From Candidatus Latescibacterota bacterium (lineage in GTDB: Bacteria; Latescibacterota; UBA2968; GCA-2709665): a stretch of DNA of 64,000 nucleotides. Each line of letters begins with the position of its first letter. The stretch's first letter is position 1. The stretch lies in NCBI GenBank assembly GCA_965248435.1, contig OZ252100.1, positions 1,376,001 to 1,440,000 of the forward strand, given 5' to 3'. Both the position numbers and the translations under genes were made by a program. Positions 2,751 through 9,531 of the stretch are shown here, one piece after another. The notes beneath the pieces are model-generated. The model was not told the origin of the DNA. It ran no database searches and worked only from the letters and a program-made list of their open reading frames with translations.

Positions 2751-3530
2751 TCAAACCGCGAAAACCGCGCTTGGCCTGTCCTGCTCCGCCACGGTCAGTC
2801 GTAAATCGGGAAAACCAAGCTGATTCAGGTTTCCCCGGCAAGTCCGCCGGGCCAGGTGAGGTTGATTGTTTTTGTCACTCAGATGGGCAAGTACGGCGTG
2901 CTCCAGGCCATCCTGAGCCAATCGACAAAGAGTCTCTGCCGCCCGATCGTTCGATAGATGTCCCCGGCTTCCGCTGATTCGCCGTTTCAGATTCCACGGA
3001 TAAGGCCCGTTCATCAACAGGTCACGGTCGTAATTCGCCTCTATCACAACCAGATCGGCAATCTTCAGCCGTTCGTAGACGAGATGGGTCACGGTGCCCA
3101 TATCTGTTGCAATCCCCAGAACCTGATCGCCCTCTCTAACCAGAAAATTTACCGGATCGGCTGCGTCGTGAGACAGGGCAAAGGGCTGGAAAGAGAGGTC
3201 GCCTACGTTGAAATTTTCGTCATTTCCAAAGAGGTGAATCCGTTCGCGGCCGCGAAACCATTTCTTACCCGAATTAAACGTGCCTTCGGTCATCCATATC
3301 GGGACTCCAAATCGACGCGCGAGTACACCGACACCTTTGATGTGATCTGTATGCTCGTGTGTTACGACAATCGCCTGGAGTTCAGATGGGTCCACGCCGA
3401 TAGATACAAGCCGTTCTCCGATCCGCTTGCCGACCAGGCCAGCATCGATCAAAACACGCGTCTGCCCCTTGCGCACGTAGATTGAGTTTCCGGAGCTCCC
3501 ACTGCCCAGCACACAGACTTCCATGGACAT
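2751..3530 (-). CDS. MBL-fold metallo-hydrolase (YycJ/WalJ-like)
   Basis: GSGSSGN, THEHTDH, HDA, EANYD, GHLSN, HLS. Confidence 0.9.
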   Translation of the reverse strand: MSMEVCVLGSGSSGNSIYVRKGQTRVLIDAGLVGKRIGERLVSIGVDPSELQAIVVTHEHTDHIKGVGVLARRFGVPIWMTEGTFNSGKKWFRGRERIHLFGNDENFNVGDLSFQPFALSHDAADPVNFLVREGDQVLGIATDMGTVTHLVYERLKIADLVVIEANYDRDLLMNGPYPWNLKRRISGSRGHLSNDRAAETLCRLAQDGLEHAVLAHLSDKNNQPHLARRTCRGNLNQLGFPDLRLTVAEQDRPSAVFAV

Positions 3531-3539
3531 CGAACCACC

Positions 3540-4766
3540 CTAGTAGTACGCTACACTCGCAAACGAGACGAGAGACTGCCCCTTTTCATCTATGGTCCGG
3601 TCGTGCTTCAGCACGACACCGCGTTCCGCTTCGATGGCTTGAAGCATGGTGTAGATAGAAGAAGTCCCACAGACCCGGTTCCGATCGCCTTCTCGCACGA
3701 TCGCATCGAAAAACCCTTCCGCATCAACCGCCTCTGCCGCCCTGAGAAGCTCCTGATCCGATTTTTCAACCCGATCGATAAAGGTCTCAGACAGGTCCTC
3801 TTCGTCGCCGAACCGAGCACCGACGTGGCTGAAATCCACGCCCGCGATAAAACAAACGCGGCTTTCCAGCCCTTCGATAGTAAGCCTCAGCGCTTCCAGA
3901 AAGTTCGAAACGGATGAGGATGCCAACGGCGAACACTTTTCAACAACCATTTCGTGAAAAGTTCCGATCAGGACCGGAACAAAAGTGATATCGCGATCCG
4001 GATACAGGTACTTCAAGAAGAGGGTCTGAAACTCGATGGAGTGTTCAGACCGATGCGAAAACTCATCTTCGAACAGATCCTCGGCGGCGTGGTGGGACAA
4101 CCGGTCGATGACCTCCTGGTCCGCCTTCAATGTCCCAAAGGGCGTTTCAAAATCTTTCCTGCTCAGCACAAAGCTGCGTCTCGCAGAATGTCCCGTTCCG
4201 AATACGAAGAAGATGTCTGGCGGCGGTGCCTCGGCAAGGGCCTTGTAGGCCCACGCGAAACAGGGTCCTCCCCGGTTGAAATCGATATGCGGTGCGATCA
4301 GCCCTCGAATCGGCGCTCGGCCGTTGGTTGCTTCAGGGACCCCAGGTCCCTCGGGGGAAAGAAAAAAACCGTCCATCATCTTCCTGAGAGCATCTGCCTC
4401 GTTCGGGTAAGAAGCACCTGCGTGGGCCGCCTGCCTTACGGACGCGGCTCGGAATCCGGCCACTGCGTCTTCCCGAAATTGTCTATAGCGTTCGCTGTCA
4501 AGAAAATAGACCTCGTCCATCTTCAGGACGAGCTCTTCGATTTGCTGTCGATTCACCGTCGACTGATCGAATTTACGATTGAACGCAGCAGCCAGGTCAT
4601 CGATCGAATGCTGCCCGTCGAACAGTGTAAGCAGATAGTAGACGTGATACGGCACGGCGAGGCCCTGATCCGTCAAACCCTCGGGATCCTTCATGTAGAT
4701 CAGCTTCTGCCCCTCGGCCTCGACTGGAACCGCTTCCAGATACCTGATTTTCGGTCTATCGTCCAT
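3540..4766 (-). CDS. AmmeMemoRadiSam system protein B (MEMO1 family) with N-terminal extension
   Basis: RQAAHAGASYP, APHID, EHSIEFQ, DFSHVG, VCG, VSFAS. Confidence 0.88.
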   Translation of the reverse strand: MDDRPKIRYLEAVPVEAEGQKLIYMKDPEGLTDQGLAVPYHVYYLLTLFDGQHSIDDLAAAFNRKFDQSTVNRQQIEELVLKMDEVYFLDSERYRQFREDAVAGFRAASVRQAAHAGASYPNEADALRKMMDGFFLSPEGPGVPEATNGRAPIRGLIAPHIDFNRGGPCFAWAYKALAEAPPPDIFFVFGTGHSARRSFVLSRKDFETPFGTLKADQEVIDRLSHHAAEDLFEDEFSHRSEHSIEFQTLFLKYLYPDRDITFVPVLIGTFHEMVVEKCSPLASSSVSNFLEALRLTIEGLESRVCFIAGVDFSHVGARFGDEEDLSETFIDRVEKSDQELLRAAEAVDAEGFFDAIVREGDRNRVCGTSSIYTMLQAIEAERGVVLKHDRTIDEKGQSLVSFASVAYY

Positions 4767-4934
4767 CGTTCACAAAGGTCCTTCTTACCAAAAAAAGCCC
4801 CATCCAAATTCCTCCGGATGGGGCTCCGAAGCACATCGTCGTGCCCTAAATCGAAGGTAGGGTCCAGCAGATGATAAGTCAAGCTATTTCTGAGCAGATA
4901 CTTGATTTAGGCGATTCGGTGCCACTGTTTTTCT

Positions 4935-7235
4935 CTACCTGGCGGCGACCCTGGCGACCCAAATACTGATTTCATAAAGCACGATGAGAGGTACGGCCAT
5001 CATCAATTGAGAAATCGGGTCGGGAGGCGTCAGGAGCGCGGCCAAAACAAACCCGGCCAGGATGGCGTAGCGGCGTCCCGCCCTCATCTTGGCCGCGGTC
5101 AGCAATCCCACCTTACTCAGAAAAAAGGTCGCCACGGGCAGCTCGAACACGACACCGAACGCGAGAAGCAGGCGAAGCACGAAACCGATATACATTCCGA
5201 TATCAAACTGAGGGGTTATTCCAGTGCCGGACGTCATCCCGACGAGGAAAACGAGGGCGATCGGTATCACGGCGAAGTAGGCGACGGCGGCGCCTGCCGC
5301 GAAGCAGAACGCTGAGGAACCGATGATAAAAATCACATAGCGTTGCTCATTTCCGTAGAGCCCGGGCGCGACGAACATCCAGAACTGGTGAAGCACGAGG
5401 GGCAGAGCAAGCAGGAAGCCGCCGACGAGCGCGATGTTAAGCCTGACGACAAACATCCCGATCGGTTTGAGGGTGATGAGTTCGGGACTGACCTTCATTC
5501 CCTGCACGGGCAGTGTCAGAAGTTTTAGAAGCTCATCCGAAAAAACGGCACACAGGATCGCTCCGGCCACGATTGCTGCCAGTGATTTCAAGATGTGCCA
5601 CCTGAGTTCCTCCAGGTGGTCCAGAAACGGCATCGCCTTCTCCCCTTCGGGGATCGAAGGTTCCGGATCCCGCGCAGGAACCTGTCCAACCGCGGCCTTT
5701 GGAAGGATGGTTCGCTCTTCAAACGTGCTGCCTGGAGGGAAAAAAGAAAGCCCGAGCAGCGCGACCGCAAGCAGCCCGCAGACCTGTGAAAATAGATCTC
5801 CGTATTGCGTGTAGAAGGTCATCTGAGTGCGCGCGGCAACCGTTCCAATGAGCAGGGCTTCGTGAAAGATACCCGTGGTCTGGTCCTTCCTTCCCAGTGG
5901 GTCGATCAACGTGGAAACGCCCGTATTCGCACAACGAACGACCGCCCGCCGATTTTCAATTGCCCTGAAAACTGCCGCCTCGGCGTGCTGATACGGACCG
6001 GAGGTCCTTCCAAACCATCCGTCGTTCGTAATTACGACAAGATACTCGGCTCCCCTCGATACCAACTCCCTAACAAAACCTGGGAAAACAGAATCGAAGC
6101 AGATGAGTGCCGAAAACCTGGCTCCTGGTCCATCGAAGACGGTCAGTTGTTTGCCCGAATCAAAATTGCCACTCACGTAGCCGGCTCCCGTAAATCTGAT
6201 CTTACGTAAAAACGGAAGGAGCTCGGGAAAAGGGGCGCGTTCGCCGAACGGGACCAGCTTGATCTTGTCGTACCTCTGCAGGGAAGACTGGCCGGGCGAC
6301 AACAGGAATGAAGAGTTGTAAGATCTAACGGGCGGGCCTGCCTCCACGCGATGTGCGCCCGTGTAGAGATAGACCTGAAGAGAATCCACATAGGCCTGAA
6401 GCCGGTCTCTGTAGCGCCGGTGGAATTCACTCTCCAGGTAGGCCTTCGTGGCTGTCTCTGGCCAGACAACGAGATCGACGCCGCTTTCCACTGCAGGACG
6501 CGTCAGCTCCTGCAGGATGTTGAAATTGTATTCAAATCCCAGGTCCTGCTTGGCGAGGGGCGGGATGTTGGGTTGTACCGCTCCTATTGATACGGGACGC
6601 CCGTCTAGTGGCGTTGAGAGCCGAAGCAGACCGTAAAGCGTGGGAACTCCGAACAGAACGATGAGCGCCACGACACCTGCAGCCAAGCGTAATCGTTGCC
6701 GCACGATCGCGAGCACCGTCAAATTCACGACGACGATCCAGAAGGAAACGCCGAAGACGCCGGTAAACTCGGCATACTGAATCAACGGGAGATACTCCGT
6801 CTGCGTGATTCCGAGCAGTGCCCACGGAAAACCCATGTCGCCGATCGAACTGAAGTATTCGAAGGCCACCCATATGAAGGGCGTGCTCCAAAAGCCCAGG
6901 ACTCCGAACCGCCTAACCACTCTGCTCAGCACCCATAGAAAAAGCCCTCTAAAGAGGGCCATGTAGACAATCGCGCCGGCCATACCGGGGAGCGTGATCC
7001 AGGAAATCCAATAGATCGTCGCGGAATAAAATACGGTGCCCTGGATCACGCCGGCGCCGAATGCGGCTCGCCCCTGCAGCCGCTCCGCCGAAAGCAGGAG
7101 CGGGATCAGCCCGACGTAAGCCAGGAGTCCGAGAGGAAGCGGAGGGAAGGCTGCAGCTAGGATGAGCCCGGAAATCGCCGGATAGACGAGGAGAAGGGGC
7201 AGGGACTTTCGGCCGCCTGGGGCATCATCCGTCAT
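4935..7235 (-). CDS. lnt-tatC: Fusion of apolipoprotein N-acyltransferase (Lnt) and Tat translocase TatC
   Basis: Lnt triad WPETA / YDKIKLVPFGE / LICFDS plus TNDGWFG, RAIENRR, ANTG; in-frame TatC from MPFLDHLEELR (5633) to LTPPD..LYEISI. Confidence 0.9.
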   Translation of the reverse strand: MTDDAPGGRKSLPLLLVYPAISGLILAAAFPPLPLGLLAYVGLIPLLLSAERLQGRAAFGAGVIQGTVFYSATIYWISWITLPGMAGAIVYMALFRGLFLWVLSRVVRRFGVLGFWSTPFIWVAFEYFSSIGDMGFPWALLGITQTEYLPLIQYAEFTGVFGVSFWIVVVNLTVLAIVRQRLRLAAGVVALIVLFGVPTLYGLLRLSTPLDGRPVSIGAVQPNIPPLAKQDLGFEYNFNILQELTRPAVESGVDLVVWPETATKAYLESEFHRRYRDRLQAYVDSLQVYLYTGAHRVEAGPPVRSYNSSFLLSPGQSSLQRYDKIKLVPFGERAPFPELLPFLRKIRFTGAGYVSGNFDSGKQLTVFDGPGARFSALICFDSVFPGFVRELVSRGAEYLVVITNDGWFGRTSGPYQHAEAAVFRAIENRRAVVRCANTGVSTLIDPLGRKDQTTGIFHEALLIGTVAARTQMTFYTQYGDLFSQVCGLLAVALLGLSFFPPGSTFEERTILPKAAVGQVPARDPEPSIPEGEKAMPFLDHLEELRWHILKSLAAIVAGAILCAVFSDELLKLLTLPVQGMKVSPELITLKPIGMFVVRLNIALVGGFLLALPLVLHQFWMFVAPGLYGNEQRYVIFIIGSSAFCFAAGAAVAYFAVIPIALVFLVGMTSGTGITPQFDIGMYIGFVLRLLLAFGVVFELPVATFFLSKVGLLTAAKMRAGRRYAILAGFVLAALLTPPDPISQLMMAVPLIVLYEISIWVARVAAR

Positions 7236-7405
7236 GCCGATCCCTTGACTGCGTGGAGTTAGCGATCAATAAGGCTTCGAGGGTAAGATTTTCCAGGTGG
7301 CTGTGGGCACTTTCCAAGGAGGAATGCGTAGAATATAAGCGAGCCCAGAATCCTTGTCAAATCTGGGATCGCGGGTTTGACAAACCGCCCTGGCCCATAT
7401 ATCTT

Positions 7406-7537
7406 GCAATTTCGGATCTGGGAATTCGGATTGCTGATTGATGATTCATTGACGCTTCTGTCCTTGTCACCCAAACGTCGCATCGTCATCGGTTCTGCCT
7501 TTCATTCCGCATTCCGCAATCCCCGATCCGCAATCGC
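7406..7537. repeat. Inverted heptamer tandem array (TTCGGAT.. / CCGCA(A/T)T..)
   Basis: ttcggatctgggaattcggattg ... ttccgcattccgcaatccccgatccgcaatc. Confidence 0.6.
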
Positions 7538-7538
7538 C

Positions 7539-8693
7539 ATGCTTCCTTCCCTTTCCACAGAGCTTGAGCGCCTCAGGTCCGAAGGCCTCTATCGCAGCCT
7601 CCGTCAAGTCGAGGGTCCTCCGGGACCCCACTGCAGGGTGATGGGGGTCGAGTACCTCAATTTCTGCTCCAACGACTATCTCGGTTTGGCAACTCACCCC
7701 ACACTCAAGGCCGCAGCAGCGAAGGCCCTGGAAGTCTACGGCTGTAGTGCAACCGCGTCGCGACTCCTCTCGGGCAGTATGCCTCCCCACGCGGAACTCG
7801 AGACCCGCCTAGCCGATTTTCTGAACACCGAGGCCGCCCTCACCTTCCCGACCGGCTACATGGCGAACCTGGGCGCCATTACGTCCCTGGCCGGTTCGGA
7901 GGATGTCGTTTTCAGCGATCGGCTCAACCACGCGAGCATCGTGGATGGCTGCCGGCTCTCGAGGGCGAAGATCATCGTCTACGACCACTGCGACCCGAAT
8001 CATCTTGAGGAATTGATGCAATCCGCGTCGAACATCCGCCGACGTGTCATCGTTACGGATGGTCTCTTCAGTATGGACGGGGACGTGGCGCCGCTGCCTG
8101 AGATAATCGAAATCGCACAGCGAAACGACGCGATTCTAATCGTGGACGACGCACACGCAACCGGGGTTCTGGGCCCGAACGGCAGGGGTTCGCCAGAGCA
8201 TTTCGACCTGCCGGGCGTCGACGTCCTGACCTCGTCCGGGAGCATTGCTCTGGGCTCAACAGGAGGTTTCGTGGCTGGCCGACAGGACCTGATCGACCTG
8301 CTGATCAACCGGGCCAGAACTTTCGTGTATACGACCGCCCTTTCCCCGGATGCCTGCGCAGCCACTGCGGCGGCCCTGGACCTGATCGATGCAGACCCTT
8401 CGATTCGTGGCCGACTGTGGAGAAATCTACAAATCGCTCGCGAGGGCTTGTGCCGTCTCGGGTTTGATCTCATGAGTTCTCGAACCCAGATTATTCCGAT
8501 CCTCATCGGCGATCCGAATCGAACGATGGCCATCTCGGAAGCCCTCCTCGAACAGAGGATCCTCCTATCCGGGATTCGCCCTCCAACCGTACCGGAAAAT
8601 CAGAGCCGCCTGCGCCTTTCGTTAACTTCCGAGCACAGCCAGGAAGACATCGAACACCTATTGGAAGCACTCGAGACGGTCCGAAGCATTTGA
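7539..8693 (+). CDS. bioF: 8-amino-7-oxononanoate synthase-like (BioF); Schiff-base Lys replaced by Ile
   Basis: NFCSNDYLGL, GYMAN, NHASI, SMDGD, DDAHATG, IRPPTVP; SSGSIALG where GTLSKALG is expected. Confidence 0.85.
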   Translation: MLPSLSTELERLRSEGLYRSLRQVEGPPGPHCRVMGVEYLNFCSNDYLGLATHPTLKAAAAKALEVYGCSATASRLLSGSMPPHAELETRLADFLNTEAALTFPTGYMANLGAITSLAGSEDVVFSDRLNHASIVDGCRLSRAKIIVYDHCDPNHLEELMQSASNIRRRVIVTDGLFSMDGDVAPLPEIIEIAQRNDAILIVDDAHATGVLGPNGRGSPEHFDLPGVDVLTSSGSIALGSTGGFVAGRQDLIDLLINRARTFVYTTALSPDACAATAAALDLIDADPSIRGRLWRNLQIAREGLCRLGFDLMSSRTQIIPILIGDPNRTMAISEALLEQRILLSGIRPPTVPENQSRLRLSLTSEHSQEDIEHLLEALETVRSI

Positions 8694-8730: not shown

Positions 8731-9531
8731 ATGAACGAAAAGAAAGTCGATTCGGATCCCCTCGAGCGAATTCGGGTTGTCCTGGTCGAGCCCAAAGAGC
8801 CGGGCAATGTCGGATCGGTCGCACGCGCCATGAAGAACATGGGCTTGGCCAAACTCTACCTGGTCAATCCACCTGACTTCGAATCGGGAGATGCTCGGAA
8901 AATGGCTACCGGATCCGGCGACGTCCTCTACGGTGCAACCGTCTCGGACTCTCTGCAGAGCGCGCTCTCCGGGACGGTCCTGTCTGTGGCCACGACCCAC
9001 AGGAGGCGCCAGCACTTCGAGCAACCCTCGAGCCCGCAGGAGGCTGCCCGAAAACTCACTTCCCTGCCGCCCGATGCCGAAGGTGCACTGGTGTTGGGAC
9101 GAGAGGACAGCGGTTTGACGAACGAAGAGCTTCATCTGTGCTCCATGGTGGCAAGGATTCCCACGGCGCAACAGTATCCCTCACTCAACCTCGCCCAGGC
9201 AGCGCTGATCTTCGCCTACGAACTCTCTCGGGCCGCCGCTGCCGGACCCGAGACGCGACGGCAGGACCTCGCTTCGTTCGAACAGGTTGAATCCCTCTAC
9301 GAACACATCGCGTCTGCCCTCGACAAGCTCGGTTTCGTGTCCAGCCAGAGGCCCGAGACCTTCATGCACTCCATAAGACGAACCTTCGGACGCATGGCCC
9401 TGGAACGTGCAGAAATTGCGACCCTGCACAAAATTTTTCGGCAAGTAGACAAGTTCGTGGCGCGCACCGGTTTCCAAAACGAACAAAATAGCAATTCGGT
9501 AACTGTCACAAACAAAAAGCGGACACCATAA
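8731..9531 (+). CDS. trmJ: SPOUT RNA methyltransferase, TrmJ/LasT family
   Basis: PGNVGSVARAMKNMG, GREDSGL, SLNLAQA. Confidence 0.85.
   Translation: MNEKKVDSDPLERIRVVLVEPKEPGNVGSVARAMKNMGLAKLYLVNPPDFESGDARKMATGSGDVLYGATVSDSLQSALSGTVLSVATTHRRRQHFEQPSSPQEAARKLTSLPPDAEGALVLGREDSGLTNEELHLCSMVARIPTAQQYPSLNLAQAALIFAYELSRAAAAGPETRRQDLASFEQVESLYEHIASALDKLGFVSSQRPETFMHSIRRTFGRMALERAEIATLHKIFRQVDKFVARTGFQNEQNSNSVTVTNKKRTP

Follow-up and report, generated by a model that had tools for sequence, protein, structure and literature searches.

The stretch of DNA analysed here, referred to as the window, comprises 64,000 nucleotides of contig OZ252100.1 from an uncultured marine bacterium, Candidatus Latescibacterota (positions 1,376,001 to 1,440,000 of the forward strand). 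On its reverse strand lies an open reading frame (ORF) of 766 codons, interrupted by no internal stop, in which the apolipoprotein N-acyltransferase Lnt is joined to TatC, a subunit of the twin-arginine translocase (Tat; Table 1). A previous sequence-only reading of this DNA had described a complete Lnt with an intact Glu-Lys-Cys triad, a linker of some 35 residues rich in proline and glutamate, and a complete TatC opening with MPFLDHLEELR at position 5633, all in a single frame, and this description was borne out by Pfam, NCBIfam and 113 homologues of the same architecture. The ORF scored 343.7 bits against the NCBIfam lnt model TIGR00546 (cut-off 132.9; profile positions 4–394 of 395) and 205.8 bits against the tatC model TIGR00945 (cut-off 132.7), and Pfam TatC matched residues 539–749 over profile positions 1–208 of 208 (6.4e-67, 225.8 bits). 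No polyprenol-phosphate-mannose synthase (Ppm) domain was found in the ORF by Pfam or NCBIfam, its C-terminal part being TatC. At the level of sequence, these results confirm that the ORF is a real, joined gene.

Table 1. Features of the lnt-tatC fusion gene and its flanks in the window (aa, amino acids; nt, nucleotides; SD, Shine-Dalgarno; AF2, AlphaFold2; pLDDT, predicted local distance difference test)
Feature	Position	Strand	Basis
Whole lnt-tatC fusion ORF	4935..7235	(-)	766 aa + stop; ATG start; both families above curated cut-offs
Lnt N-terminal membrane domain LNT_N, residues 22-172	6720..7172	(-)	Pfam 2.8e-30; AF2 helices
Periplasmic nitrilase-like CN_hydrolase, residues 217-467, with E260, K324, C379	5835..6587	(-)	Pfam 2.3e-30
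Last Lnt transmembrane helix TM8, residues 481-496	5748..5795	(-)	AF2 helix; hydropathy peak 481-499
Linker, disordered, acidic/proline-rich, residues 497-534, predicted cytoplasmic	5634..5747	(-)	pLDDT, alignment
SD-like GGGGAGAAGG	5636-5645	(-)	GGAG begins at -10 from internal ATG
Internal ATG = M535, ancestral TatC start codon	5631..5633	(-)	invariant Met; matches residue 1 of Aquifex TatC
TatC part, residues 535-766	4938..5633	(-)	Pfam/NCBIfam; end-to-end alignment to solved TatC
Promoter-like site TTGACA, 17 nt, TATATT (11/12), ~100 nt upstream of start codon	7332..7360	(-)	consensus match only
Terminator-like hairpin, 15-pair stem + T run, ~110 nt past stop codon	4794..4827	(-)	consensus match only

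The N-terminal half shares with Escherichia coli Lnt (PDB 5N6H, 5XHQ, 5VRG, 6NWR) the layout of LNT_N followed by CN_hydrolase, the Glu-Lys-Cys triad and a last transmembrane helix that follows the nitrilase-like domain. Residues 14–481 aligned with the solved E. coli protein (E-value 5e-36) at an identity that we estimated by eye from the alignment at about 25–30%, and the structure alignment placed the window motifs WPET, YDKIKLVPFGE and LICFDS opposite E. coli WPES, YNKNHLVPFGE and AICYE. PMC8689077 gives the E. coli triad as Glu267, Lys335 and Cys387 and describes Lnt as having eight transmembrane helices. In the window protein the triad is E260, K324 and C379, and it is invariant among the 113 fused homologues. 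The AF2 model has helices across residues 11–206, an alpha/beta domain at 213–468 and a helix at 481–496, a predicted arrangement that agrees with eight Lnt helices and a nitrilase-like domain that is periplasmic and lies between TM7 and TM8. The predicted function of this half is the N-acylation of apolipoproteins. The window protein differs from E. coli Lnt in its roughly 270 additional C-terminal residues, made up of the linker and a complete TatC.

In the C-terminal half, MPFLDHLEELR begins at M535. Residues 535–766 aligned with residues 1–232 of Aquifex aeolicus TatC (PDB 4B4A, 4HTS; E-value 1e-45 against 4b4a), colinear from end to end and with M535 opposite residue 1 of 4b4a_A. AF2 placed helices across 537–765 with pLDDT mostly above 80, and in this model the half is colinear with the six-helix fold of solved TatC. 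The acidic residues of the TatC HLxELR, PGLYxxE and FExP motifs have roles in signal binding, and the N-terminal region of E. coli TatC helps to bind the signal peptide. Among the 113 fused proteins E630, E698 and the TPPDP motif are invariant, and E542/E543 are at least 90% conserved. Tat transport is the function predicted for this half while it remains fused. Unlike that of the Aquifex protein, the N-terminus of the window TatC is not free, as a disordered acidic linker ties it to an eight-helix enzyme.

The linker measures about 29–38 residues in the window protein, depending on the end chosen for TM8, while the stretch between F482 and M535 takes 42 distinct lengths of 36–116 residues among the 113 fused proteins, all in frame. 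After TM8 it consists of 15% Glu, 15% Pro, 14% Asp and 14% Ala, and its column identity of 0.30, versus 0.62–0.65 for Lnt and 0.74 for TatC, marks it as hypervariable. Using the homologue alignment, AF2 returned a mean pLDDT of 86.8 and a predicted template modelling score (pTM) of 0.68, with pLDDT below 50 at residues 510–527. High pLDDT in both halves together with a disordered linker indicates two confidently modelled domains whose mutual position is not fixed. Complex prediction of Lnt (1–510) with TatC (535–766), run with alignments and without control runs, gave an ipSAE of 0.00 in both runs, which speaks neither for nor against an interface. The N-terminus of TatC lies in the cytoplasm. 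Since the number of Lnt helices is even, the join is topologically sound, as had been argued from the sequence, and the linker is predicted to be cytoplasmic; most homologues have basic residues right after TM8 (consensus FRxPR), as a cytoplasmic exit would predict.

To examine the junction, contigs from four public runs were mapped onto positions 4900–7300. One contig (X1), possibly from the source sample, covered this whole interval with 0 differences. A contig from another study (X7) extended over the entire gene and differed from it by 76 substitutions with 0 gaps, a third (X5) covered 4900–6294 with 38 substitutions and 0 gaps, and a fourth (X8) crossed the junction in one piece from 5534 to 5748. 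No insertions or deletions were reported in the contigs across 4900–7300, an interval that includes the segment 5600–5760 singled out earlier for this check. Among the 40 substitutions listed of 82, 25 were synonymous, 15 non-synonymous and 0 stop-creating. The fusion was present in both short-read and single-contig assemblies.

The same architecture is widespread among relatives of the window's genome. A search with residues 440–766 returned 305 proteins, and among the 120 of these listed with their domains, which range in identity to the window protein from 100% down to 37%, 113 have LNT_N, CN_hydrolase and TatC, four are shorter and probably truncated proteins with CN_hydrolase and TatC, two have TatC only and one has TatC with NadA. 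All 41 relatives examined from two families of one order have exactly one TatC match, which in 40 lies inside an open frame of 764–841 aa; the remaining one is cut by a contig edge. In a survey of 153 Latescibacterota genomes with completeness of at least 80%, TatC was found in 149. Every genome of the window's order (53/53) carries the fusion, 52 of them in frames of at least 713 aa and one (G006) fused but truncated, and a sister family, f4, adds 30 genomes with frames of at least 801 aa (23/28 in genus g25, 2/2 in g29 and 5/8 in g30). In the remainder of the class and in all other classes the TatC frames are about 250–560 aa. Beyond the phylum survey, the best 150 matches among 1.84 billion cluster representatives included two fused proteins, the others matching the Lnt part alone, and further long Lnt proteins carried PAP2, SNase or LEA_2 domains, not TatC. 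Taken together, these results show a fusion that is real, old, kept in frame and maintained by selection, both halves of which retain their defining residues.

Other variants of both proteins were seen in these searches. In family f4, fused and split TatC alike (L026–L032, L117–L122) have an insertion of 50–90 residues in the first periplasmic loop, at alignment columns ~780–850, that is absent in the window's order. In family f10, TatC (e.g. L141, G049) occupies frames of 406–562 aa that lack Lnt and in which a long acidic stretch of low complexity extends the N-terminus, which is a different route to a longer TatC N-terminus. A 677-aa protein labelled candidate division KSB1 (P0119) joins TatC (19–229) to the quinolinate synthase NadA (339–673), here with the partner C-terminal. 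Lnt fusions from elsewhere (P0170, P0236, P0250, P0157, P0176) are of the PAP2-Lnt, Lnt-SNase and Lnt-LEA_2 types, and two Lnt proteins among them have ~350 extra C-terminal residues with no Pfam match.

Within the window's genome, a profile search found the fusion to be the only TatC match and the only full-length lnt match, a second hit at 26 bits being merely a CN_hydrolase relative. Two TatA_B_E matches lie away from it (C1:717858 and C1:4542049), and one lgt and one lspA are found elsewhere on the chromosome. Being the genome's sole tatC and its sole full-length lnt, the fusion is the housekeeping copy of both functions rather than an extra, dedicated unit.

The origin of the fusion was traced with half-specific hidden Markov models (HMMs) for Lnt and TatC, run on the stop-to-stop ORFs of all fetched loci. 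In unfused genomes of the same class, lnt lies directly upstream of tatC on the same strand, with a stop 40–220 nt before the conserved Met. Many of these split junctions read ATGA, the lnt stop being overlapped by the tatC start codon, and TatC of this type has an acidic N-terminal extension of about 20–35 residues. Four species of g25, a genus that is mostly fused, and likewise g27 and g19 have the two ORFs in one frame, divided by a single stop followed by NNN-ATG. Thus, of the outcome that the sequence-only reading had set against a genuine fusion, namely separate adjacent genes in all relatives, one part is seen, in that many relatives in the class have such genes, and the other is not, since the whole of the window's order is fused. 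A few genera have lnt and tatC 1.4–1.9 kb apart, or no lnt within about 3 kb; the phylum's other classes have the two genes widely separated, and tatC was near lnt in 0/57 outgroup lnt loci, 49 of which had at least 1500 nt downstream.

On the fusion-Lnt HMM, tatC-linked lnt genes scored 600–690 bits and the native lnt of other classes 463–601 bits, while the additional lnt that stands alone in most f4 genomes scored 324–364 bits. Since the linked lnt scores like native lnt and the stand-alone copy far lower, the linked copy is the ancestral one; the divergent f4 lnt may be a paralogue or have come in by horizontal transfer. This divergent stand-alone gene (L144–L149, L152, L153) is the only lnt in one genome, G069. 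A maximum-likelihood tree, built quickly from 66 TatC parts (274 columns), called for four changes of the fused state, at least three of them forced by well-supported branches. In an approximately unbiased (AU) test on 62 rows, with four long-branch outgroups omitted and the fused group named after inspection of the tree, a single fused clade was rejected (186 log-likelihood units worse, p-AU 1.8e-43). Fusion and fission are evidently one-step events that have recurred on a gene pair whose coupling is probably translational.

We consider it probable that the product of this ORF is a genuine inner-membrane protein with two functions and about 14 transmembrane helices, derived by merging a coupled gene pair, and that its halves do their usual jobs. 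The N-terminal part would be the housekeeping apolipoprotein N-acyltransferase, with eight helices and a periplasmic Glu-Lys-Cys nitrilase-like domain, and the C-terminal part the cell's single TatC, which forms the translocase's receptor core with six helices, the two being linked by a flexible acidic, proline-rich cytoplasmic tether. Its source would be an lnt-tatC pair that is tightly, and probably translationally, coupled throughout the class; one polypeptide would have resulted once the lnt stop codon was lost or a small change merged the frames, and the state appears to have changed at least three times in the phylum. The TatC half would pair with the two TatA/B-type proteins encoded elsewhere, and the Lnt half would act downstream of Lgt and LspA, whose steps come between Tat export and N-acylation. 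Both halves are predicted to be active while fused, and the fusion would set 1:1 synthesis and put Lnt beside Tat receptor complexes, so that what the cell gains is likely joint expression and a shared location, not a closed channel for substrates.

A stronger form of coupling, proposed in the sequence-only reading as a dedicated export-and-acylate unit, would have Lnt built into the Tat receptor complex so that Tat-exported folded lipoproteins are N-acylated on site, with selection acting on this hand-over. The class-wide adjacency of lnt and tatC with start/stop overlap, the repeated fusion and the 53/53 genomes of the order all speak for it, being the classical 'Rosetta stone' signature of a functional link; Tat can carry lipoproteins (PMC8689077), and mycobacterial Lnt-Ppm1 joins Lnt with a partner from the same pathway (PMC3850990). 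We also scanned the window's genome alone for twin-arginine (RR) and lipobox motifs using home-made patterns on raw stop-to-stop ORFs in all frames; in this GC-rich genome the counts are rough, and 33 ORFs had RR with a lipobox versus 13–19 for KK, KR and RK controls. By the same crude scan, however, only 19–33 of 246 lipoprotein-like ORFs carry RR, so that most lack a twin-arginine motif, and as the sole Lnt the protein must also serve lipoproteins exported by Sec. The intermediate enzymes Lgt and LspA, like both TatA/B genes, are unlinked to the fusion; the linker is hypervariable and disordered, offering no fixed interface; and in some genera the pair lies 1.4–1.9 kb or more than 3 kb apart, while it was adjacent at none of the 57 lnt loci outside the class. 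A dedicated unit is thus unsupported as stated, and we regard such a machine as rather unlikely. Its fullest version, in which Lnt is a stoichiometric, integrated part of the Tat receptor complex and folded lipoproteins mature on exit, is doubtful; if true, it would be the first natural super-complex of translocase and lipoprotein maturation and would hint that other bacteria, too, organise Tat sites and lipoprotein processing in space. The acidic tether and N-terminal TatC extension, found in split and fused forms alike, could also help to capture the basic twin-arginine signal peptide.

The proteins might alternatively be fused only on paper, with TatC made mainly from a start at M535, or the linker cleaved, and the joined frame of little consequence. 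M535 is invariant in 113/113 fused proteins, stands directly after the hypervariable linker and corresponds to the native start of Aquifex TatC, and the single-stop split forms in a mostly fused genus indicate that TatC is able to start independently. The SD-like run noticed earlier ahead of this Met is present: the genome has a canonical anti-SD tail, GGAG shows a genome-wide peak at -14 to -9, and the window GGAG falls inside it. Genome-wide, SD-like 4-mers precede 34% of crude first-ATG starts versus 16% of internal ATGs. At the conserved Met, however, such a 4-mer was found in 4/28 distinct fused loci, about the background rate, versus 16/42 unfused loci, a start-like rate, in a comparison that counts related and hence not statistically independent loci. 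A conserved SD before the internal ATG is therefore rejected as a general feature. The background rate in fused loci fits TatC made as part of the fusion and suggests that independent initiation was lost after fusion, the window's species being a possible exception; the earlier suggestion of free TatC thus has in its favour a well-placed SD-like run in this one species and not a signal shared by the fused loci. Stand-alone TatCs throughout the phylum keep the Met equally well, even where their start probably lies further upstream, and the Met may therefore be structural. A consensus scan, which is weak evidence, found no promoter-like match ahead of the TatC part; the promoter-like site upstream and the terminator-like hairpin downstream, themselves consensus matches only, make the gene look monocistronic. 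As ribosomes on lnt meet no stop, the fusion must be made as well, and a frame kept over 42 linker lengths would be needless if the join were unimportant. These observations make a fusion on paper only improbable. That a sequencing or assembly error erased a stop or frameshift between two separate genes is hardly credible, for although some close relatives are one in-frame stop codon away from the fused state, the junction is spanned without a gap by contigs from independent studies, 82 genomes have full-size frames and 113 protein clusters are fused, which refutes an artefact as far as computation allows.

Several points nonetheless weigh against a bifunctional protein derived from a merged gene pair. 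The full-length product is predicted from the DNA alone, and placing a ~500-aa Lnt beside the N-terminal signal-peptide-binding region of TatC may be hard to reconcile with TatBC oligomers. The well-placed SD-like run in the window's species could yield some free TatC, and the disordered linker could be cleaved after synthesis. The SD comparison draws on related genomes and is suggestive only, and the tree comes from a quick search over 274 columns, with a fused group defined post hoc.

Lnt and TatC are textbook proteins of envelope biogenesis that are nearly always studied separately. A full-text literature search, with supplementary architecture tables outside its scope, found no description of an Lnt-TatC fusion, and its only co-mention of Latescibacteria and TatC was unrelated; the fusion seems undescribed, a new domain architecture of two known kinds of protein. 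A precedent is mycobacterial Lnt-Ppm1 (Rv2051c / BCG_2070c), for which PMC3850990 places Lnt at the N-terminus, as here, and reports the two parts as separate adjacent genes in Mycobacterium smegmatis and Corynebacterium glutamicum, as lnt and tatC are in relatives of the window's genome. The partner differs, being a cytoplasmic polyprenol-phosphate-mannose synthase domain in Lnt-Ppm1 and a six-helix translocase subunit in the window. A stable and repeatedly arisen fusion is a testable lead that Tat export is linked with the last lipoprotein step in space or stoichiometry, and a TatC that tolerates a large membrane enzyme on its N-terminus bears on models of the TatBC oligomer. We regard the fusion as moderately interesting, not as a new system but as a good handle for experiments. 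In public databases these proteins are named only 'apolipoprotein N-acyltransferase' or 'hypothetical protein'; as neither name mentions TatC, annotation-based surveys would score these Latescibacterota as TatC-less.

The genes flanking the fusion were compared across 20 flanked loci. Downstream on the same strand, past the hairpin, lies a gene for a 408-aa Memo-like protein (AmmeMemoRadiSam B-type; 3540–4766, (-)). As a Memo-like gene follows tatC in just 3/20 flanked loci (L018, L022 and the split-form L030), it was rejected as a conserved partner and is not part of the unit. A gene for a hydrolase of the metallo-beta-lactamase (MBL) fold (2751–3530, (-)), also downstream of the fusion, is found in 6/20. 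Divergently transcribed upstream are genes for a class I/II aminotransferase (BioF/KBL-like; 7377–8693, (+)) and a SpoU methylase (8731–9531, (+)); an aminotransferase gene occupies that upstream position in 10/20 flanked loci, all of them group-A fused loci.

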